Positions 2,540-14,078 of a stretch of 22,970 nucleotides of DNA are shown piece after piece. The notes beneath the pieces are model-generated. The model did no database searches. It saw only the letters and a list, made by a program, of their open reading frames with translations, and was not told the origin of the DNA. Positions within the stretch are counted from its first letter, which is position 1. Each line of letters starts with the position of its first letter. The stretch is from a virus. The position numbers and the translations under genes are program-made. The stretch lies in the UHGV virus genome UHGV-0259249; one strand, written 5' to 3'.

Positions 2540-2807
2540 CATTCCCGGATTACTGAATGTGGCGTTATGCACGGTTATCGTGCTGACGCTCTTTTTTTAT
2601 CGTCGCCGTGATTCCAGACATAAACCGCTGATGTCATGGCTGGCCTGGCTACTGATGCTGCTTTATGCCTTTGCACCACTCAGCTATCTGTGTGGTCGCC
2701 CGTTAGCGGCGAACTGGCTGGCGGTGGGGCTTAATCTGCTGTTCTGCGTGTTGGTGATTCGCGCACGCGGGAACGTTTCAAAAATCTTTGTATTACGAAG
2801 GCGCTGA
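2529..2807 (+). CDS. second holin/antiholin-like membrane protein (92 aa, ~3 TM)
   Basis: ATG 2529 overlaps the end of the previous gene; GGAGG upstream. Three hydrophobic segments and an Arg-rich C-terminal tail (VLRRR). Stop TGA 2805-2807 lies 1 nt before the endolysin start. Confidence 0.5.
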   Translation: MLSNIPGLLNVALCTVIVLTLFFYRRRDSRHKPLMSWLAWLLMLLYAFAPLSYLCGRPLAANWLAVGLNLLFCVLVIRARGNVSKIFVLRRR

Positions 2808-2808
2808 T

Positions 2809-3354
2809 ATGAAGTCGAAAGATGAAATTTTTGACGAAGTTCTGGGAAAAGAGGGCGGTTACGTCAATCACCCGGATGATAAAGGCGGACCGACAAAATG
2901 GGGTATTACTGAAAAAGTTGCCCGTGCGCACGGATACCAGGGCGATATGCGTGATCTGACGCGCGGACAGGCGCTGGAAATACTCGAGGCGGACTACTGG
3001 TATGGACCACGTTTTGACCAGGTGGCAGCGTTATCCCCTGATATTGCCGCAGAGTTGTGTGATACGGGCGTGAACATGGGGCCAACCGTGGCGTCAAAAA
3101 TGCTTCAACGCTGGCTTAACGTTTTCAACCTGCGCGGGAAACTGTATCCGGATATGGATGCTGATGGACGCATCGGGCCGCGTACTCTTAATGCGCTACG
3201 GGCATATATGAAAAATCGTGGCAGGGATGGCGAACTGGTCTTACTAACCGCGCTGAACTGTACGCAGGGTGACCGTTATCTGGAGCTGGCAGAGAAACGC
3301 GAGGCCAACGAGTCGTTTGTCTATGGCTGGATGAAAGAACGCGTGGGAGTGTAG
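2809..3354 (+). CDS. endolysin: glycoside hydrolase family 108-type N-terminal domain plus PG_binding_3-type peptidoglycan-binding domain
   Basis: ATG 2809 (GAAGG 8 nt upstream; the track's 2788 start is TTG). 'EGGYVNHPDDKGGPTKWGIT' matches the GH108 catalytic signature; 'DADGRIGPRTLNALRAY' is typical of the associated PG-binding domain. Confidence 0.85.
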   Translation: MKSKDEIFDEVLGKEGGYVNHPDDKGGPTKWGITEKVARAHGYQGDMRDLTRGQALEILEADYWYGPRFDQVAALSPDIAAELCDTGVNMGPTVASKMLQRWLNVFNLRGKLYPDMDADGRIGPRTLNALRAYMKNRGRDGELVLLTALNCTQGDRYLELAEKREANESFVYGWMKERVGV

Positions 3355-4930: not shown

Positions 4931-4942
4931 ATGGAGTTGCCT

Positions 4943-5482
4943 ATGTCAAATGTGATTGGGATTGGTGATGCTTATCACTGGAGTGTTTTTAAAATCGCCG
5001 AGGCTTTTGGGCTTCATCGGGACACAGTAAAAAAACGTCTCCTCGCAGCTAACACTCCTGTGGCTGCAACTGTCAAAGGAAACCCCGTTTATGCCCTGCA
5101 GCATGTCGGACCTGCCCTGTTTGGCCCGAAGCATGAGGTGGTAGCAGACTCTGTTCATGATCCATCCCGGATGGAGCCGAAAGAGAGAAAGGACTGGTTC
5201 CAGTCTGAAAATGAAAGGATCAAGCTGGAAAAGGAACAGCGGAAACTCATCCCTGTCGATGAAGTGGTCATCGTCTATTCATCTATGAGAAAGGCTGTCG
5301 TTCAGGTTCTGGAGACCATTCCGGATATTCTGGAACGCGATTGCGCCCTGACTCCTCAGGCTGTTGGTGTCGTACAGCAGGCCATTGATGACCTGCGATA
5401 TACCCTTCAGGAAAAATCCTACGAGGCCTGTGCTGCTGAATTAATTTCTAATGAGGAAGGAGAGAGTCTCGAGGAGGAATAA
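4943..5482 (+). CDS. terminase small subunit (HTH-type DNA-binding N-terminus)
   Basis: ATG 4943 with GGAG 6 nt upstream (track start 4931 also possible). Sits immediately upstream of, and overlaps by ATGA-type coupling, the large terminase; N-terminal helix-turn-helix-like segment 'WSVFKIAEAFGLHRDTVKKRL'; acidic C-terminus. Confidence 0.65.
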   Translation: MSNVIGIGDAYHWSVFKIAEAFGLHRDTVKKRLLAANTPVAATVKGNPVYALQHVGPALFGPKHEVVADSVHDPSRMEPKERKDWFQSENERIKLEKEQRKLIPVDEVVIVYSSMRKAVVQVLETIPDILERDCALTPQAVGVVQQAIDDLRYTLQEKSYEACAAELISNEEGESLEEE

Positions 5483-7596
5483 TGGGTTTTTCATCAGCCC
5501 GAAACCTTGGCAGGGACATATCTGCAGGATTTTCCCCACCACGTCGCATGCCGATTTCGGAGGCTGTTAAAAAATTCATGCGAGTTCCTAAGGGCGCGGG
5601 TAACTCAGTGCCATGGGATCCTGAACTGACGCCCTACATTATTGAACCTATGAACTGTTTGGCATCGCGTGAATACGATGCGGTGATTTTTGTTGGTCCT
5701 GCGCGAACAGGGAAGACCATCGGTCTGATCGATGGATGGGTTGTCTATACCATCGTCTGTGATCCTTCGGACATGCTCGTCGTGCAGATGACCGAAGATA
5801 AGGCTCGCGAGCATTCGAAAAAACGGCTCGACAGAACGTTCAGAAGCAGTACAGCGGTAAAGAAAAGAATGAGTCCACGTCGTAATGACAATAACGTCCA
5901 TGATAAGACGTTCAAGGATGGCTCATTTCTTAAAATTGGTTGGCCCTCAGTCAATATTATGTCGTCGTCGGATTACCGGTTTGTTGCCTTAACCGATTAC
6001 GACCGCTTTCCGGAGAATATCGACGGTGAAGGTGATGGTTTTTCCCTGGCTTCAAAACGTACCACCACATTTATGTCTGCAGGTATGACGTTGGTGGAGA
6101 GTTCGCCAGGGCGTGAGATCACAAACAGTAAGTGGCGCAGAACATCACCGCATGAAGCCCCGCCCACCACGGGGATCCTTTCTCTGTATAACCGTGGCGA
6201 TCGTCGTCGCTGGTACTGGCCCTGCCCGGATTGTGGTGATTATTTCCAGCCATCTATGGAGGCTATGACGGGGTATCGTGACAATCCTGATCCTGTAAAA
6301 GCGAGTGAAGCGGCTCATATATTATGCCCTCATTGTGGCAACCGAATCACCGCAGACATGAAACGTGAACTGAATGGACGCGGCGTCTGGCTGCGTGAAG
6401 GTGAGCAGATTGACAGAGAAGGGAATGTTACCGGAACGCCCCGTCATTCAAGAATTTCCAGCTTCTGGATGGAAGGGCCGGCTGCAGCCTATCAGACCTG
6501 GGCGCAACTGGTTTACAAACTACTGACTGCTGAGCAGGAATATGAAGCCACAGGCAGTGAGGAAACACTGAAGGCGGTGATTAACACCGACTGGGGATTA
6601 CCTTATTTGCCTCGTTCCGCAATGGAGTTGCGCAGTGCAGATGTTCTGATGCAGCGGGCTGAGGATTACGGTAAGCGCCTGGTACCGCCGAAAGTGCGTT
6701 TTCTTATTGCGGCGGTGGACGTGCAGGGCGGGAAGAACCGACGGTTTGTGGTGCAGATTATTGGTTATGGCGAGGACGGTGAACGCTGGCTGGTGGACCG
6801 TTATAACATCCGACAGTCATTGCGCTGCGATGAAAATGGCGAAGCATTACCTGTGCATCCCGGGGCTTATCCTGAAGACTGGCAGCTGCTGGTCACCGAT
6901 GTACTGGAGAAAACGTATCCGCTCCAGTCCGATCCGGCCCGCAGAATGCCTGTACTGGCAATGGCGGTGGACAGTGGTGGTGAAGATGGAGTGACGGATA
7001 ACGCCTATAAATTCTGGCGAAAATGTCGTCAGGATGGACTGGGGCGACGGGTTTTTCTGGTAAAGGGAGACAGCACGAAACGCCAGAAAATTATCACCAT
7101 CACACACCCGGATAATACCGGGCGAAGCGATCGCCGTGCGGATGCTCAGGGAAAGGTGCCGGTATATCTCCTGCAGACAGACCTGCTGAAAGATCAACTA
7201 AGCAATAACCTGCAACGTGAAATGCCCGGGCCGGGCTACATTCATTTTCCTGACTGGCTCGGGGAGTGGTTTTATGAAGAGTTGACCTATGAGGAACGCG
7301 GTGCTGACGGGAAATGGCGCAAGCCGGGAAAAGGGAATAACGAAGCGTTTGACCTTTTTTGCTATGCCCATGCCGTCGCCATTCTGCGTGGCTATGAAAA
7401 AATCCGTGACTGGAGCAACCCTCCCCAGTGGGCAAGAGGGCAGGATGCTGACGCGGGTGCTTCGGCAGACAGACGTTCTTCCGGCACAGTGGACAAGAAA
7501 AACGTTGCCGGAAGAGATGAGCGGCAAAAAGCAGCGTCGCCGGAAGCGTTATCCGGAAACTGGTTATCACTACCCCGAAACGGAGGATGGTTGTGA
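5482..7596 (+). CDS. terminase large subunit, lambda GpA family
   Basis: 704 aa. Walker A-like 'GPARTGKT'; C-terminal blocks 'FLIAAVDVQGGKNRRFVVQIIGYG', 'YLLQTDLLKDQL' and 'NEAFDLFCYAHAV' parallel lambda gpA ('YLTAGIDSQLDRYEMRVWGWG', 'NEALDCFVYALAA'). Cys-rich 'CPDCGDYF...CPHCGN' zinc-ribbon-like element. Confidence 0.9.
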   Translation: MGFSSARNLGRDISAGFSPPRRMPISEAVKKFMRVPKGAGNSVPWDPELTPYIIEPMNCLASREYDAVIFVGPARTGKTIGLIDGWVVYTIVCDPSDMLVVQMTEDKAREHSKKRLDRTFRSSTAVKKRMSPRRNDNNVHDKTFKDGSFLKIGWPSVNIMSSSDYRFVALTDYDRFPENIDGEGDGFSLASKRTTTFMSAGMTLVESSPGREITNSKWRRTSPHEAPPTTGILSLYNRGDRRRWYWPCPDCGDYFQPSMEAMTGYRDNPDPVKASEAAHILCPHCGNRITADMKRELNGRGVWLREGEQIDREGNVTGTPRHSRISSFWMEGPAAAYQTWAQLVYKLLTAEQEYEATGSEETLKAVINTDWGLPYLPRSAMELRSADVLMQRAEDYGKRLVPPKVRFLIAAVDVQGGKNRRFVVQIIGYGEDGERWLVDRYNIRQSLRCDENGEALPVHPGAYPEDWQLLVTDVLEKTYPLQSDPARRMPVLAMAVDSGGEDGVTDNAYKFWRKCRQDGLGRRVFLVKGDSTKRQKIITITHPDNTGRSDRRADAQGKVPVYLLQTDLLKDQLSNNLQREMPGPGYIHFPDWLGEWFYEELTYEERGADGKWRKPGKGNNEAFDLFCYAHAVAILRGYEKIRDWSNPPQWARGQDADAGASADRRSSGTVDKKNVAGRDERQKAASPEALSGNWLSLPRNGGWL

Positions 7597-7811
7597 AAAA
7601 AGATGAGATTTTCCAGATGCTGGTTATCGTGCGTCAGGCATACAGGGATTCCCTGGATGGTAAAAGTGTGTCTTTTACCGGGGTGAATGGCAGGTCGATC
7701 ACCAACCATGATCCTGTTGCATTGCGCAGGGAACTTGAATACTGGGAAAAACGCTGGGCGGCGGCCTGCCAGCCCACAAGGAAACCGTACAAACTCGCCC
7801 GTTTCTCCTGA
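7593..7811 (+). CDS. head-tail joining protein, gpW-like
   Basis: GTG 7593 with GGAGG 6 nt upstream (ATG 7587 also possible, but spacing to the RBS is 0). ~72 aa; 'RDSLDGKSVSFTGVNGRSITNHDPVALRRELEYWEKR' resembles lambda W '[37 protein letters not shown]'. Confidence 0.65.
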   Translation: MKKDEIFQMLVIVRQAYRDSLDGKSVSFTGVNGRSITNHDPVALRRELEYWEKRWAAACQPTRKPYKLARFS

Positions 7812-7819
7812 GGTTTTTT

Positions 7820-9331
7820 ATGGGTTTTTTTGATAAAGCACTTGGTGCAATTGCGCCAGGGTGGGCAGTTACGCGCGCCAGAAACAAAATGCTGCTGAGA
7901 GCTTATGAGGCGGCGCAGCCTTCACGCCTGAATAAAGCCCGGCGTGAGAGTCGTTCTGCCGATACAGCAGTTTTTTCTGCTGGCACTTCGTTAAGGGAGC
8001 AGGCCAGGGCGCTGGATGAAGATCATGATATCGTGATTGGTCTGCTGGATAAGCTGGAAGAGCGGGTTATTGGTGCGCAGGGGATCCAGGTTGAACCACA
8101 ACCACTGAGAAGCGATGGCACCCTGCATGAATTGCTGGCAGAGCAGATCTCGGCATTGTGGTCTGAATGGTCTGTTCGCCCTGAGGTCACGGGGATGTTC
8201 ACTCGCCCGGAGGCCGAACGGATGGCATTGCGATCTGCTTTGCGTGATGGCGAGATGTTCGTACAACTGGTGCGTGGTCCTGTCGCCGGTCTGAATCATT
8301 CCACTGTGGTGCCATTATCACTGGAACTTCTCGAAGCAGATTTTGTTCCGGTCAGTCTGAACACGAACGCGGGTCAGCAAGTCCGCCAGGGCATTATTCT
8401 TAACAACTGGGGGCGGCCTGTAGGGTATCGGGTTTATAAATACCATCCTGCAAATATGCGTGGATTCAGCGCCGATCTCAAAACTGTTCACGCAGACAAC
8501 ATGCTTCATCTGGCGATGCGGAAACGGCTTCATCAGGTGAGAGGTGTCAGCCTGTTACATGGTGTGATTCGCCGGATTGCTGATCTGAAAGATTACGAAG
8601 AATCAGAGCGTGTGGCTGCCCGTATTGCTGCCGCGCTGGGTTTCTACATTAAGCGTGGTGATGCCGCCAGCTTTCCGACGGATAACGACTGGACACCCAC
8701 AGAACAAAAACCCCGATACTTTGATATTTCGCCGGGCATGATTTTTGACGAACTGGCCCCCGGTGAAGATCTGGGGATGGTGGAGTCGAATCGTCCGAAT
8801 GTTCATCTTTATGAATTCCGGAACGGGCAGTTGCGTGCTGTGGCTGCCGGAACCCGTGGCAGTTATTCCAGTATTGCCCGTGACTATAACGGCTCCTACA
8901 GTTCGCAGCGTCAGGAGCTGGTGGAAGGTTACGAAGGCTACGGGGTTTTACAGCAGTGGTTTGTCGGTCAGTACAGCCGCCCGGTGTACCGGGCATGGCT
9001 GGAGCAGGCGATACCTTTTCTTGAAATTCCTCCTGATGTGGATATGTCCACGTTTTTCAATGCCACTTATCTTGGCCCGGTGATGCCGTGGATTGATCCG
9101 GTGAAGGAGGCTGCAGCATGGCGGGCCATTCTTCGCGGTGGTGCCGGGACGGAGGCCGAGTGGATACGTGCCCGTGGGCAGTCACCGCAGGAGGTCAAAC
9201 GTCAGCGACTGCGTGAAACTGAATTTAACCGGGAAAACGGGCTGGTGTTCGATTCTGACGCCGCTAACGATAAAGGAGTGATCCCTGATGCAGCAAATGA
9301 TAAACCCGCGTCTTCGCGGGACGATGATTAA
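7820..9331 (+). CDS. portal protein (lambda gpB-type)
   Basis: 503 aa, positioned directly after terminase and W and before the prohead protease; size and order fit the lambda-type portal. Start ATG 7820. Confidence 0.8.
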   Translation: MGFFDKALGAIAPGWAVTRARNKMLLRAYEAAQPSRLNKARRESRSADTAVFSAGTSLREQARALDEDHDIVIGLLDKLEERVIGAQGIQVEPQPLRSDGTLHELLAEQISALWSEWSVRPEVTGMFTRPEAERMALRSALRDGEMFVQLVRGPVAGLNHSTVVPLSLELLEADFVPVSLNTNAGQQVRQGIILNNWGRPVGYRVYKYHPANMRGFSADLKTVHADNMLHLAMRKRLHQVRGVSLLHGVIRRIADLKDYEESERVAARIAAALGFYIKRGDAASFPTDNDWTPTEQKPRYFDISPGMIFDELAPGEDLGMVESNRPNVHLYEFRNGQLRAVAAGTRGSYSSIARDYNGSYSSQRQELVEGYEGYGVLQQWFVGQYSRPVYRAWLEQAIPFLEIPPDVDMSTFFNATYLGPVMPWIDPVKEAAAWRAILRGGAGTEAEWIRARGQSPQEVKRQRLRETEFNRENGLVFDSDAANDKGVIPDAANDKPASSRDDD

Positions 9332-11378
9332 TCCCCGCGCCAGCCTTGCGGGGGTGGATGCCGCTAATGGTCAGTGCTGGTATGAAATCCGTGCGCAGAC
9401 TGCCGGGCGGGTGGAAATTTACCTCTATGACGTGATTGGCGGATGGGGCATCACCGCGCAGCAGTTTATTGCTGACTGTAAGGATGCGGGGGTGTTTGAG
9501 GCCAGCGCTATTGATCTGCATATCCACAGCCCGGGCGGTGATGTGATGCAGGGGTTTGCCATTTTTAACACGCTGTCACGGCTGAAAGCGAAGGTGGATA
9601 TCTGGGTGGATGGTGTTGCAGCCAGCATGGCCTCCATGATTGTCTGCCTGCCTGGCGCCACAGTGCATATGCCTGAAAATTCCTGGCTGATGATACACAA
9701 GCCGTGGGGCGGGATCGCCGGTGATTCCGATGATATGCGTGATTATGCTGACTGGCTGGATCGCAACGAGGCGCTGATGCTGTCAGCCTACATGAATAAA
9801 ACCGGACTCGGGCAGGAGGAGCTGGAAGCCATGCTGAAAGCAGAAACCTGGCTGAACGGTGCTGAAGCCGTGGAAAAAGGCTTCGCTGATACGCTTGAAC
9901 CTGAATTACAGGCTGCGGCCTGTGTGAACCAAAATAAACTGAAGGATTACCATAATATGCCAGAACAGATTAACGCGCTTTTTGCTCCACGTGCAGAAAC
10001 GACAAACGGACAGCCGCAGGAGCCGAAAGCAACCCCGCAAAATGCGCAACAGATCGCTGCTCAGCAGGCACCATTAACCGGAAATGTGGATATCAGCGCA
10101 ATTGCTTCGCAGGTTCAGCAACAACTGATGGCAGCCAATGCGGAACGTGTGCAGGCTGTAACCGCAGTTTTTGCCTCTTTCCCGTCTTATGCCGCACTGA
10201 AAGCGGAGTGTCTGAACGACATGACCTGTACGGAAGCACAGGCCCGTGAAAAACTGTTGCAGGCGCTGGCAGCCGGAACGACACCAAGTGCAGGCCCGGG
10301 CGCTGTTCATATTCATGCCGGGAACGGTAATCTGGTCGGCGATTCCATTCGTGCGGCTGTGATGGCACGCGCCGGATATGCCGAAGCAGAAAAAGATAAT
10401 GCTTATAACGGTTTTACACTGCGCGAGCTGGCGCGTGCTTCGCTGGTTGATCGCGGTATCGGTATCTCCGGTCATTCCGCACCGATGGCGATGGTGGGGC
10501 TGGCATTTACTCACAGCAGCAGCGATTTCGGCAATATCCTGATGGATGTGGCTCATAAAGCTGCGTTGCAGGGCTGGGATGATGCCAGCGAAAATTTTGA
10601 CAAATGGACCCGTAAGGGAACGCTGACTGATTTTAAAACCGCGCATCGTGTCGGGCTGGAAACTTTCCCGACGCTACGAAAAGTATTGCCGGGGGCTGAA
10701 TATAAATATGTGACCCTGAAAGATCGTGGCGAACCGATTGCACTGGCGACTTATGGCGAATTGTTCAGCATTGATCGCCAGACCATCATCAATGATGACC
10801 TGGATATGCTGACCCGTATTCCGATGGCAATGGGGGCGGCAGCGCGGACTACCGTGGGTGATCTGGTCTGGGCCGTGCTGACCAGCAATCCGAAAATGTC
10901 GGATGGCAAACCGCTGTTCCATGCAGATCATGGCAACCTGGTGACTGCAGATTTGTCTATTGAGGGGCTGGATTCCGGGCGTAAAGCCATGCTGCTCCAG
11001 AAATCGGGTGACCGCCGCCTGAACATTCGTCCTGCTTTTATGTTGACGCCTGTTGCCATTGAGTCGCGTGCCAATCAGTTGATTAAGTCTGCCAGCGTGC
11101 CCGGTGCAGATGCGAACAGCGGCATTATTAACCCGATTCAGAATTTTGCCACGGTTCTGTCAGAGGCCCGTCTTGATGACAGCAGCCCGACGGATTATTA
11201 CCTGGTAGCAGCGCAGGGGCGTGACACGATTGAAGTGGCTTACCTCGACGGTATTGATACGCCGTATCTGGAGCAGCAACAGGGCTTTACGGTTGATGGT
11301 GCAGCATTCAAGGTGCGCATTGATGCCGGAGTGGCACCGCTTGACTGGCGTGGCATGGTCAAAGTGAAAAAACAATAA
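9288..11378 (+). CDS. prohead protease (ClpP/S14-like) - scaffold-like linker - major capsid protein fusion (696 aa)
   Basis: N-terminal ~200 aa has ClpP-like features ('HIHSPGGDVMQGFAIFNTL', 'VAASMASMIVCLPGATVHMPENSWLMIHKPWGG'); a Q/A-rich low-complexity linker (~aa 230-330); the C-terminal ~340 aa has capsid-like character. One uninterrupted frame with no internal stop. Confidence 0.8.
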   Translation: MQQMINPRLRGTMINPRASLAGVDAANGQCWYEIRAQTAGRVEIYLYDVIGGWGITAQQFIADCKDAGVFEASAIDLHIHSPGGDVMQGFAIFNTLSRLKAKVDIWVDGVAASMASMIVCLPGATVHMPENSWLMIHKPWGGIAGDSDDMRDYADWLDRNEALMLSAYMNKTGLGQEELEAMLKAETWLNGAEAVEKGFADTLEPELQAAACVNQNKLKDYHNMPEQINALFAPRAETTNGQPQEPKATPQNAQQIAAQQAPLTGNVDISAIASQVQQQLMAANAERVQAVTAVFASFPSYAALKAECLNDMTCTEAQAREKLLQALAAGTTPSAGPGAVHIHAGNGNLVGDSIRAAVMARAGYAEAEKDNAYNGFTLRELARASLVDRGIGISGHSAPMAMVGLAFTHSSSDFGNILMDVAHKAALQGWDDASENFDKWTRKGTLTDFKTAHRVGLETFPTLRKVLPGAEYKYVTLKDRGEPIALATYGELFSIDRQTIINDDLDMLTRIPMAMGAAARTTVGDLVWAVLTSNPKMSDGKPLFHADHGNLVTADLSIEGLDSGRKAMLLQKSGDRRLNIRPAFMLTPVAIESRANQLIKSASVPGADANSGIINPIQNFATVLSEARLDDSSPTDYYLVAAQGRDTIEVAYLDGIDTPYLEQQQGFTVDGAAFKVRIDAGVAPLDWRGMVKVKKQ

Positions 11379-11380
11379 AT

Positions 11381-11405
11381 AACCGCCGGACAGGGCGGTT
11401 TTTTT
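11381..11405 (+). terminator. intrinsic terminator after the capsid gene
   Basis: AACCGC(11381-11386)/GCGGTT(11395-11400) stem followed by T5; a second small hairpin GGCGCA-ttt-TGCGCC follows at ~11414-11428. Confidence 0.65.
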
Positions 11406-11450
11406 ATGGCTGAAGCGGCGCATTTTGCGCCGCATTTACCGGAGAAAAAA

Positions 11451-11780
11451 ATGTCAAAAAATTTTGTTCAGGACGGAAAAAACGTCGACTGGGTGAACGG
11501 GACCGGGAAGGCGGTGTCATCTGGCGATCTGGTTGTTCAGGATAATCTTGTTGGTGTTGCTCACGCTGATATTCCGGACGGGGATGTGGGCATTCTGCAT
11601 ACGGTGGGGGTTTTCTCTTTACCTAAAGAGGCAGAGGCGCTGACGCAAGGCAAGCTGGTGTATTTCAAAGCGGATACGGCAACACTGACCGCAACGAAAT
11701 CAGGTAATACGCTGGTGGGAACAGTATGGGCATCGGCTGAAGCCGGAGATGCCTGTGTTTGTGTGCGTCTGGGGTACTGA
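11451..11780 (+). CDS. head decoration protein (gpD-like)
   Basis: ATG 11451 with GGAGA 7 nt upstream (the track start 11406 lies inside the terminator T-run). ~109 aa, placed right after the capsid gene; Gly/Val-rich beta-type sequence similar in style to lambda D. Confidence 0.55.
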   Translation: MSKNFVQDGKNVDWVNGTGKAVSSGDLVVQDNLVGVAHADIPDGDVGILHTVGVFSLPKEAEALTQGKLVYFKADTATLTATKSGNTLVGTVWASAEAGDACVCVRLGY

Positions 11781-12136
11781 TGCATCGATTTCATAAACGG
11801 CTGATGCGGGCAGATGCCCGCATTTCCCGGCTTTTTTCCGAGGAGTGTCCGGCGATACTGTCTATTGGCAGCGAGCGTCGCCCTATTATGGTGATTTTTG
11901 AATCTCCGGATGCGCCGGTTCGTGTTCCGGGTGGTGGAGAAATTAACGATCAGGCTCCGGCATTCAGCGCACTGACAGAGGATATTAAGGGGCTCAGCAC
12001 AAATTGCACAGTGGAGCTGAACCACGAATTTTACCGCGTCACGCATATAGGTGCGGATGAAATGGGGCGCACACGCGTAACGCTCGGGCGTGGACGGGGG
12101 ACATCATTACCGACCATCGAATGGAGTAAAAAATAA
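11780..12136 (+). CDS. head completion / head-tail connector protein (family uncertain)
   Basis: ATG 11780 overlaps the stop of the decoration gene (TGATG). 118 aa; assigned by position between the head and tail-completion genes only. Confidence 0.45.
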   Translation: MHRFHKRLMRADARISRLFSEECPAILSIGSERRPIMVIFESPDAPVRVPGGGEINDQAPAFSALTEDIKGLSTNCTVELNHEFYRVTHIGADEMGRTRVTLGRGRGTSLPTIEWSKK

Positions 12137-12157
12137 ACTTCATAAGGAGATGTCGCA

Positions 12158-12841
12158 ATGGCGCGGGCATCACGCATCCGGCGAAATCTGTTGTTTGATA
12201 TCGACGTCGAAGAATTGCGGGATATTGTGGCGCAGGCTGGCGCAACGCAGCACCAGTTTCGTCTGGCCTATTCCCGCGCACTGAAGCGAACGGCATCAAA
12301 AATGCGCATGAAGGCGCTTGCGGAACTGAAAACCGGCCTGGCTCCCCGCAAAATGGACATGCTGCGCAGGCGTCTTTTTTCCACCCGCATTACCTGGGGT
12401 AATGCAATGGATGAAGCCCGTTTCTGGTTTGGTCTTAATGCGATCAAGATAAAGGATCTGCGCGGACGCATTCGTGGACGACGTGTTCGTCATCATGATC
12501 TCCGTGATCCGGTAACCGGGCGGTTTATCAAAGAGAACCGTGCCCGGCGACGTCGCCGCAAAGCCAGCGATCCCGTTTTTGAACCCAACGGTTCGTTTTT
12601 ATCTCCTGCCGCGTATGAAAACGGGCTGGTGATACGCAGCCGTAAAGAGAACCGACGAACGATCATCATCAAAAATCCGGAGACGGGGCGCGTCCGTGAA
12701 GCCGAGGCCAACATTTACGCCCGCACGATGGATTACGTGGAGGATGTGGCTTTTGCGGAGTGCCTGGAGATTTTTATGAAAGAGTTCGAATCAGACATCC
12801 GGCGACGCGCGAAGTACGGCATTACCGTGACCCCCCGATAA
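12158..12841 (+). CDS. Arg-rich tail-completion / virion morphogenesis protein (gpZ-like class)
   Basis: AAGGAG 8 nt upstream of ATG 12158. 227 aa with a poly-Arg block 'RARRRRRKAS', reminiscent of lambda gpZ-type proteins. Family call is tentative. Confidence 0.5.
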   Translation: MARASRIRRNLLFDIDVEELRDIVAQAGATQHQFRLAYSRALKRTASKMRMKALAELKTGLAPRKMDMLRRRLFSTRITWGNAMDEARFWFGLNAIKIKDLRGRIRGRRVRHHDLRDPVTGRFIKENRARRRRRKASDPVFEPNGSFLSPAAYENGLVIRSRKENRRTIIIKNPETGRVREAEANIYARTMDYVEDVAFAECLEIFMKEFESDIRRRAKYGITVTPR

Positions 12842-12857
12842 AAAACGTGAGGATGTA

Positions 12858-13427
12858 ATGGCTGAACCCTTATGCATGGCATCCTGGCACACTGCTGTGC
12901 TGGATGCCCTGAAAAAACTTAAATGGATCAATGATGCGGACACCTATCCGGAACGGGTCACGCAGCTGGTCACTCCGGCGGTGTTTCTGGCGGTCGATGG
13001 CTGGGATGCGAAAAGCAATGCAGACGGGCAGATGACGGTGGTGTTGTCTGCTGCGCTGTGGGTACTGGTTGACCGTGCCGGTGAGCCGGATAAAGAAAAA
13101 AAAGAAGAACGCAGGGCGATAAAGCCGGATATTTTTATCCGTTCGGCGGCAGCCGCGTTGTCGCACTGGCTCGACGGGCAGACGTTTGGACTGGCAAATG
13201 TGGAGCCTGCCATTTTTATATCAGCGGACGCAGATGAAACCGATCCGCGTCTGGATGATTATCTGGTCTGGCAGATTTCATTTAACCAGACGGTGACGTT
13301 TGGTATGGATCCCTTTGCCACGGATAACCTGCCGCTACAGCGGGCCTGGCTGGGCGTGGCACCGGAGATCGGGCGACAGCATGTGGATGATTACCGGCTG
13401 ATTTTTGAGGGAAAGCCACGTGAATGA
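12858..13427 (+). CDS. tail terminator / completion protein (weak gpU-like N-terminus)
   Basis: GAGG upstream of ATG 12858. N-terminal 'WHTAVLDALKK' resembles lambda gpU 'ELRAAVLDALEK'; located immediately before the baseplate and sheath genes. Function tentative. Confidence 0.45.
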   Translation: MAEPLCMASWHTAVLDALKKLKWINDADTYPERVTQLVTPAVFLAVDGWDAKSNADGQMTVVLSAALWVLVDRAGEPDKEKKEERRAIKPDIFIRSAAAALSHWLDGQTFGLANVEPAIFISADADETDPRLDDYLVWQISFNQTVTFGMDPFATDNLPLQRAWLGVAPEIGRQHVDDYRLIFEGKPRE

Positions 13428-14040
13428 GGTTCTGGGGGATTTACAGCGCCGCCTGGCAAATATGGTCCGGCGTGGGGTGATCCACTCGGTGCGGCTGGAC
13501 GGTGGTTTTCCGGAATGCCGCGTGGATCTGGGGGATATTGTGACCACCTGGCTGCCATTGTGTCAGGGTTTTGCCGGAAAAAACCGGGCAGATTTTGAGC
13601 CGTTTGCTGTGGGGGATGCGGTTACGGTGCTGTCAGAGGCCGGGGAGCTGAATAACGGTCGTGTTTTTCCCGGCTGGAATACCGGTGCGGCACCGGCTCC
13701 GCAGGGCAGCGACAGTGAGCACATCACCCGTTACGGAGATGGCACGGAAATTTGCTATAACCGGGAGACGCACTCACTGACCATTATTCTGGCAGAAGGG
13801 GGCACCTATGCCATTACCGGGAATGGTGTGCTGGACGGAAACGTCATGATCTCAGAAGACCTGATCGTGAACGGACGCACGATGGTTGAAGGTGAAGTGG
13901 TGGTGAAAAGTGATTTTTATGCAAAAGGCGAGGTGACGGATAAATCCGGCAGCATGAGCCGGATCCGGGAAACGTATAATGGACACGACCATCCCGGAGA
14001 CAGTGGGGGAACCACGAAAGTACCGAATCAGAAAATGTGA
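13420..14040 (+). CDS. baseplate spike protein, P2 gpV / Mu gp45-like
   Basis: GTG 13420 with GAGGGAAAG upstream. N-terminus 'VNEVLGDLQRRLANMVRRGVI' parallels P2 V 'MNTLANIQELARALRNMIRTGII'; C-terminal 'YNGHDHPGDSGGTTKVP' matches the conserved HxH...GDSGGTT spike apex. Confidence 0.8.
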   Translation: MNEVLGDLQRRLANMVRRGVIHSVRLDGGFPECRVDLGDIVTTWLPLCQGFAGKNRADFEPFAVGDAVTVLSEAGELNNGRVFPGWNTGAAPAPQGSDSEHITRYGDGTEICYNRETHSLTIILAEGGTYAITGNGVLDGNVMISEDLIVNGRTMVEGEVVVKSDFYAKGEVTDKSGSMSRIRETYNGHDHPGDSGGTTKVPNQKM

Positions 14041-14061
14041 CCTGCTGCGGCAGGTTTTTTT
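14041..14061 (+). terminator. intrinsic terminator-like hairpin between V and the sheath gene
   Basis: CCTGC-tgcg-GCAGG followed by T7 (14055-14061), immediately after the V stop codon. Confidence 0.55.
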
Positions 14062-14078
14062 ATGTCCGGAGAATGCAA

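Follow-up and report, generated by a model that had tools for sequence, protein, structure and literature searches.

A Gifsy-2-type protease, scaffold and capsid fusion gene in an enterobacterial prophage, with a conserved internal start that probably provides a second, protease-less product

This report deals with the head-shell gene carried by UHGV virus genome UHGV-0259249, a stretch of DNA of 22,970 nucleotides (nt) that is hereafter called the window. On the forward strand, a single open reading frame (ORF) at positions 9288 to 11378 encodes a ClpP-like prohead protease, a scaffold-like middle part and an HK97-fold major capsid protein. We read it, with a probability of about 0.72, as a Gifsy-2-type head-shell gene of an enterobacterial prophage that joins a lambda-type head module to a contractile tail, and as the source of two products from one frame. 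The fused architecture as such is already known: NCBIfam has a curated model of it, RefSeq names it, and it has been the subject of experiments in Gifsy-2. Our one addition to it is modest and concerns the linker, where a conserved internal start, consisting of a Shine-Dalgarno (SD) motif and an ATG at codon 224, probably gives rise to a second, protease-less scaffold-capsid product. The parts of the gene, all on the forward strand (+), are the following.

9273..9278 (+): SD motif AAGGAG, 9 nt before ATG 9288, read directly from the sequence and, like that ATG, kept in the six closest loci
9288..11378 (+): full-length fusion ORF in one open frame, 696 amino acids (aa) and 75.0 kDa, with protease, scaffold and major capsid protein
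9288..9368 (+): N-terminal leader, residues 1-27, variable, predicted to be disordered (predicted local distance difference test, pLDDT, below 50) and outside the family profiles
9375..9902 (+): ClpP-fold prohead protease (clan SK, S14-like), an alpha/beta domain of about residues 30-205
9624..9626, 9696..9698 and 9843..9845 (+): codons of S113, H137 and E186, respectively
9942..9946 (+): internal SD-like motif AAGGA, 10 nt upstream of ATG 9957
9957..11378 (+): putative nested in-frame gene starting at M224, scaffold plus capsid, 473 aa and 50.6 kDa
9996..10082 (+): disordered linker rich in P, Q, A and T, residues 237-265, pLDDT below 50, of highly variable length across the family
10092..10271 (+): three-helix scaffold-like domain, residues 269-328, pLDDT about 86-97
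10272..10331 (+): candidate zone of maturation cleavage, residues 329-348 (AGTTPSAGPGAVHIHAGNGN), which separates the scaffold domain from the N-arm of the capsid
10332..11375 (+): HK97-fold major capsid domain, residues 349-696, about 38 kDa

The internal start was followed in a closer and in a distant set of relatives. The closer set comprises 92 loci, namely the window, eleven annotated loci and 80 IMG/VR viral contigs, with 48-98% identity to the window protein. In all 92, the position aligned with codon 224 is an ATG, and this ATG stands behind 38 different upstream 18-mers, all of which have AGGA at the same position except for one that has GGGAG. Counts of SD motifs, defined as AGGA, GGAG or GAGG ending 4-12 nt upstream, were taken over the 38 sequences left after dereplication at 90% identity. 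Ten alignment columns are conserved as potential start codons among them. Column 224 has an SD motif in 38/38 and column 1, the start of the full-length gene, in 25/35, against 0-3 of the 38 at each of the other eight.

A further signal comes from codon 219, whose residue varies among K, E, Q and R while its third base is G in all 37 of the K, E and Q codons; the one remaining codon is AGG. As a background, G takes the third position in 50% of all K, E and Q codons in the ORFs, and in the 23 other columns with a conserved K, E or Q it always stays below 100%. The fixation of this third base as G thus points to selection at the nucleotide level that keeps AGGA.

Distant loci were gathered by a scan of one genome per species, from which 80 were fetched and two with shorter ORFs were left out. 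They belong to Alpha-, Beta- and Gammaproteobacteria and to metagenome bins labelled Opitutaceae, Acidobacteria, Bdellovibrionales and Archangium. The distant comparison set consists of 80 fused ORFs, that is, 77 genome-scan loci together with the window, Gifsy-2 and the Pseudomonas phage F10. At the level of the residue, position 224 is Met in 9 of 81 representatives, and nearly every sequence has a Met slightly deeper in the disordered linker. A reading of M224 as non-conserved family-wide, which the 9/81 would invite, was dropped because the linker alignment and the DNA of the 80 ORFs show that a shifted start is kept. In 78 of the 80 fused ORFs, the stretch that aligns with window residues 200-275 holds an in-frame start codon with an SD motif, typically as AAGGAG, AGGAG or GGAGA, then 5-9 nt, then ATG. 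The two ORFs outside the 78 have AAGGTGGA and AAAGGGGAA. As a control for position along the protein, the 210-270 zone has an SD motif with ATG in 75 of the 80, versus 0-19 of the 80 in ten other zones of 60 residues.

Several points weigh against a functional internal start or limit how far it can be taken. Its use is an inference from the comparison of sequences, and so is any ratio between two products. In the window, the upstream SD (AAGGAG, 9 nt from its ATG) is the stronger of the two, the internal one being AAGGA at 10 nt. The site of the internal ATG also varies by clade, being at codon 224 here and mostly at about 240-250 (in alignment terms) elsewhere, so that the conserved feature belongs to the linker and not to one codon. 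In the closer clade, a motif at the protein level, [KEQ][DE][FY]xxMP, could explain part of the signal, and since the sequences are phylogenetically related, the counts given above do not represent independent events. Finally, the place of maturation cleavage, likely around residues 329-348, is a guess from predicted disorder.

The first-pass annotation had proposed that protease, scaffold-like region and capsid are made as one polypeptide. The single frame behind this proposal stands, and the full-length protein as sole product is made doubtful by the conserved internal SD and ATG, which suggest a second one. In the single-product model, only the 696-aa protein is made, each subunit brings and then removes its own protease and scaffold, and the internal start is idle. 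The frame is indeed unbroken and its upstream SD strong, so ribosomes starting at 9288 must reach 11378, and by a rough estimate about 415 copies of the internal part of some 38 kDa could fit a T=7 procapsid. The gene is also described as a single fused product in the available parts of two papers (PMC12315714, PMC8508860). We nonetheless hold this model to be unlikely, considering that essentially every family member has the linker SD and ATG while other zones of the protein mostly lack them, that a synonymous position is fixed so as to keep AGGA, and that the homologous lambda gene C is annotated with a nested in-frame start, nu3. Full-text searches of the literature, which did not extend to the primary Gifsy-2 study, returned no statement of an internal start for these genes. 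A scan for sigma-70 promoters around the fusion gene gave no more sites than shuffled sequence, and we therefore propose no internal promoter.

In the two-product reading that we prefer, ribosomes would start at ATG 9288 to make the 75-kDa full-length protein and also at the internal SD and ATG 9957 to make the 50.6-kDa scaffold-capsid protein without protease. On the portal, the two would assemble together into a procapsid, and the full-length protein would bring its protease domain inside the shell by way of its capsid and scaffold parts. The protease (S113 and H137, with E186 at the position of the ClpP Asp) would then cut near residues 329-348 and break down its own domain together with the scaffold, leaving a capsid subunit of about 38 kDa. 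The shell would expand as the gpA-type terminase (5482..7596) packages DNA into it, and would be cemented by the DUF2190 protein encoded downstream. The cleavage position and the order of assembly are likewise inferred.

The division of labour between the two products can be worded more specifically. We lean towards a nested pair in which the linker ribosome-binding site (AAGGA-N10-ATG, 9942-9959) makes the protease-free scaffold-capsid protein as the main building block, and the full-length protein mainly delivers a limited number of protease domains. If true, this pair would explain how such phages set the ratio of protease to capsid, and also why two unrelated protease types, those of the families NF045540 and NF045541, are joined to the homologous scaffold-capsid part at about the same point of the linker. 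An internal start, if used, would moreover tie the family mechanistically to lambda C/Nu3 and to HK97 gp5.

Comparison with known systems places the gene. STM1034.3n of Gifsy-2 also has 696 aa, is 51% identical over residues 31-692 and reaches 949.6 bits on the NF045540 profile. It shares the order of ClpP-like protease, middle domain and HK97-fold capsid, and the neighbourhood is shared as well, with a lambda-type portal upstream (7820..9331 in the window) and a small decoration-type gene downstream (the cement gene at 11451..11780) in identical order. The internal codon aligned with M224 is likewise an ATG, with GAGGAG 9 nt upstream, although the intervening amino acids differ, and a terminator-like hairpin follows the gene as it does in the window. 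On the other hand, the N-terminal leaders of the two proteins are unrelated, and Gifsy-2 is a lambdoid siphovirus with lambda-type genes for a non-contractile tail, whereas the window prophage has a contractile tail. Gifsy-2 particles have been studied; the cryo-electron microscopy of Gifsy-2 by Effantin et al. in 2010 reportedly yielded T=7 capsids that were modelled with HK97 gp5 and a gpD-like trimer.

The proposal that the polypeptide processes itself during head maturation is consistent with homology to the Gifsy-2 gene and with the invariant S113 and H137. For Gifsy-2, self-processing in head maturation is the accepted model, according to the available part of PMC12315714, which cites Effantin et al. 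(2010; Virology 402:355).

In Pseudomonas, the gp5 proteins of phages MD8 and F10 show about 56% identity over residues 29-692, in a different host genus and next to siphovirus tails. In F10, whose locus is MD8-like, the aligned codon is again an internal ATG with AGGAG upstream. MD8 gp5 is described as one gene for protease, scaffold and major capsid protein in the portions available of PMC8508860, and these portions do not mention an internal start. In Paracoccus, this three-domain gene has been described for 34% of siphovirus prophages (PMC6536676).

Phage lambda offers a precedent for the proposed nested start. The window protease and helical scaffold domain align colinearly with gpC, in that window residues 72-359 match gpC 123-422 when the family profile is compared by hhalign (probability 90.7%, E-value 1.2e-6, 264 columns), and the three-helix domain falls on the C-terminal part of gpC/Nu3. 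By annotation, lambda Nu3 is made from an in-frame start inside C. This start is at gpC residue 239, within the aligned protease region, whereas the window start lies past the protease domain. The capsid protein E of lambda is encoded by a separate gene and has no detectable sequence relation to the window capsid, which is fused and of the Mu gpT or Phage_capsid_4 type. Lambda has its decoration gene D between C and E, whereas the window has an unrelated DUF2190 cement gene after the capsid. The portal, large terminase and head-tail attachment protein of the window fall in Pfam families named for lambda or for the gpA terminase. In HK97, by contrast, the protease is of the herpesvirus-like S78 type and encoded by a separate gene, whereas that of the window has a ClpP fold and is fused; no Peptidase_S78 is found among the Pfam matches of the window protein (E-values up to 0.01). 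By analogy, the short product would resemble HK97 gp5 (delta domain plus capsid) and the pair of products would resemble lambda C/Nu3. The presence of a cement protein suggests stabilisation in the style of lambda instead of HK97-type chainmail cross-linking.

A second NCBIfam family, NF045541 (scaf_prot_MCP2, 'prohead protease/major capsid protein fusion protein'), has a homologous scaffold-capsid part from about residue 238 on, but its N-terminal protease is not ClpP-like, and one member has a weak match to Peptidase_S78. The window protein falls short of this family, with 379.9 bits against a cut-off of 525 over residues 238-693 only. Loci of NF045541 turned up in the genome scan (L111, L131, L136, L152 and L155), and their point of protease exchange lies in the same linker as the internal start. 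The internal SD and ATG are kept in the four members with a site positive by regular expression (L111, L131, L152 and L155). The location of the swap point in the linker hints at an exchange of the entire protease module ahead of a scaffold-capsid gene.

The gene belongs to the Gifsy-2-type family of 'tripartite capsid genes'. It scores 937.5 bits on NCBIfam NF045540 (scaf_prot_MCP1), against a cut-off of 475, with residues 42-694 on profile positions 2-651 of 652, and PHROG 133 matches the fusion protein end to end. Of the features of NF045540, the full-length match, the ClpP-fold protease with its Ser and His, the HK97-fold capsid and the head-module context are present. Copies in E. coli with 92.6-98.5% DNA identity carry the RefSeq/PGAP name 'ClpP-like prohead protease/major capsid protein fusion protein' and use the same start codon. 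For annotation, the ORF is to be read as the major capsid gene of the prophage, though several phage records label its homologues just 'Clp protease'. Homologues in deposited phage genomes (H2-H41 in our list) carry inconsistent names and mostly leave the capsid function unstated: 'ATP-dependent Clp protease proteolytic subunit', 'Clp protease-like protein', 'head maturation protease', 'phage protease/scaffold protein', 'hypothetical protein' and 'major capsid protein' all occur.

Separate protease and capsid genes are, as is generally known, found in many phages (e.g., HK97 gp4 and gp5), and one could suppose that a frameshift in sequencing or assembly has fused two such genes here; phage PAN70, in one database record, even carries a disrupted copy. 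The comparative data speak otherwise. The same unbroken frame is present in 92/92 closer and 78/80 distant loci from independent genomes and viromes, as well as in six E. coli chromosomes (79.5-98.5% DNA identity) and in the isolated phages Chris1 (85% protein identity) and yong2 (69%). Among 1.84 billion representatives at 50% identity, 3,946 matched the protein at E ≤ 1e-30; the best 150 of these are mostly 640-750 aa long and align in a single stretch over query residues of about 30-692. The full-length architecture is seen in more than 100 clusters at 50% identity, and a curated full-length hidden Markov model exists for it. The uninterrupted ORF at 9288-11378 is therefore confirmed as first read, and because independent loci show the same frame, an assembly artefact is excluded for practical purposes.

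It could also be asked whether the gene, while looking intact, sits in a defective prophage that no longer builds particles, the more so as the window holds no replication or lysogeny genes to judge by. Such a dead remnant is very improbable in our opinion, since the window has a complete head module and a complete tail module, both colinear with their counterparts in Chris1 and yong2, two phages that have been isolated. In addition, no catalytic residue and no conserved column of the protein has been lost.

Domain searches and structure prediction, both proposed in the first-pass annotation, bear out its three-part reading of a ClpP-like protease, a scaffold-like middle and an HK97-fold capsid in one frame. 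Pfam finds CLP_protease at residues 73-202 (E-value 4e-29) and Phage_capsid_4 at residues 385-693 (E-value 2e-51), with a weaker match to Mu-like_gpT. Searched against PDB sequences with plain phmmer, the protein matched only ClpP and no capsid. The AlphaFold2 model used here was built on a diverse alignment of 81 sequences (31-90% identity to the query) and has a mean pLDDT of 86.8; it took the place of one from a shallow alignment of 26 sequences, none below 76% identity, which had a mean pLDDT of 46.5 and an unusable capsid domain. In the model, the C-terminal domain has the HK97 fold and the protease the ClpP fold.

S113 and H137 correspond in alignment to the catalytic Ser and His of ClpP and are invariant in the 81 diverse sequences, and E186, at the position of the catalytic Asp, is Glu in 69/81 and Asp in 8/81. 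The protease domain thus shares the fold and the catalytic Ser/His of ClpP, yet it is not a cellular ClpP: on TIGR00493, the model of the cellular ATP-dependent enzyme, it reaches 61.1 bits against a cut-off of 308.6. The middle part had been described as a low-complexity segment of about 100 aa rich in Gln and Ala. Its composition agrees (23% Ala and 13% Gln over residues 241-345), but it is not low-complexity throughout, as residues 269-328 form a confidently predicted three-helix domain and predicted disorder in this region is confined to 237-265 and 334-345. The second of these disordered stretches lies in the candidate cleavage zone, and a relative of 346 aa (P0148) aligns from query residue 352 on.

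Three features adjoin the fusion gene, all on the forward strand.

7820..9331 (+): portal gene of the lambda family (Pfam Phage_portal_2, E-value 5e-89), with E. coli homologues annotated 'phage portal protein'
11381..11407 (+): intrinsic-terminator-like hairpin AACCGCC-GGACAG-GGCGGTT (7-bp stem, 6-nt loop) at 11381-11400, followed by T7, found by a terminator scan
11451..11780 (+): head decoration or cement gene (DUF2190, Phage_cement_2; Pfam E-value 4e-27; PHROG 122, head decoration)

The terminator noted directly after the ORF was recovered by the scan as this hairpin with T7. Of 167 related loci, 79 have a comparable hairpin and T-run no further than 110 nt from the stop codon; in control windows within the ORFs, the count is 23 of 507. 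Hairpin and T-run plausibly act as a partial terminator or as a 3' stabiliser that favours the capsid mRNA. The mechanical ORF of the cement gene starts at ATG 11406, inside the T-run of the terminator, whereas the homologues called by PGAP begin at the position that corresponds to ATG 11451, an ATG preceded by GGAGA at 6 nt. A start at 11451 rather than 11406, with a product of 109 aa, is more likely.

At its other end, the fusion ORF shares 44 nt with the 3' end of the portal gene, so the first 44 nt of the leader are read in two frames, as the fusion ORF and as the C-terminus of the portal. Here the first-pass annotation had pointed to a local duplication, MQQ-MINPR-LRGT-MINPR-ASLAG, overlapped by two short hairpins, and had suggested alternative initiation. 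Both MINPR units and both hairpins (CCCGCG-TCTT-CGCGGG and CCCCGC-N9-GCGGGG) are present as described. The suggestion of alternative initiation did not hold up: no SD-like motif was found before the second ATG (9324), this codon is ATA in strain A19, and in a junction alignment of seven loci the repeat is degenerate (MTSPR/IINPR in strain A19, MISPP/MINPR in SC476 and Chris1) or absent (phage yong2). The hairpins were likewise rejected as a signal, since dinucleotide shuffles fold about as well as the 111-nt region (z -0.5 on the forward and -0.4 on the reverse strand). We treat the MINPR repeat as a clade-specific micro-duplication with no demonstrated function. On the minus strand, the first hairpin (9305-9320) reads CCCGCG-AAGA-CGCGGG followed by TTTATCATTT and was scanned as terminator-like inside the overlap of portal and fusion gene; because such sites in the region are as numerous as expected from shuffles, it is probably a chance occurrence.

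In its wider context, the prophage is a hybrid of modules (window 4931-16402) in which lambda-named head gene types, comprising the gpA terminase at 5482-7596, the lambda-family portal and an FII-like attachment protein at 11759-12136, are followed by a contractile tail. As annotated by PGAP in the near-identical E. coli locus L001, the tail genes include baseplate V, a VgrG-like protein, gpW/gp25 and tail protein I, as well as sheath (window about 14037-15548) and tube (15545-16051). An ORF of 552 aa at 16505-18163 (+) lies between the gene for the tail-assembly chaperone and those for 'phage tail protein' and 'tail protein X'. In E. coli, the homologue bears the name 'AAA family ATPase'; judged from its position, the ORF may encode the tape-measure protein.

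Upstream, accessory and lysis genes at 17-589, 1483-1908 and 2788-3354 (+) encode a protein with an N6_N4_Mtase DNA methylase domain, a protein with a weak match to a TerB domain and a GH108 plus PG_binding_3 endolysin, respectively. A near-identical E. coli prophage differs in this region and has genes for an M15 peptidase and a heptose-phosphate phosphatase there. Two adjacent tRNA genes, tRNA-Thr (TGT) at 755-830 and tRNA-Gly (TCC) at 834-908, both on the forward strand, precede the lysis and packaging genes, and the same tRNA pair is annotated in the prophage of E. coli NY1601.

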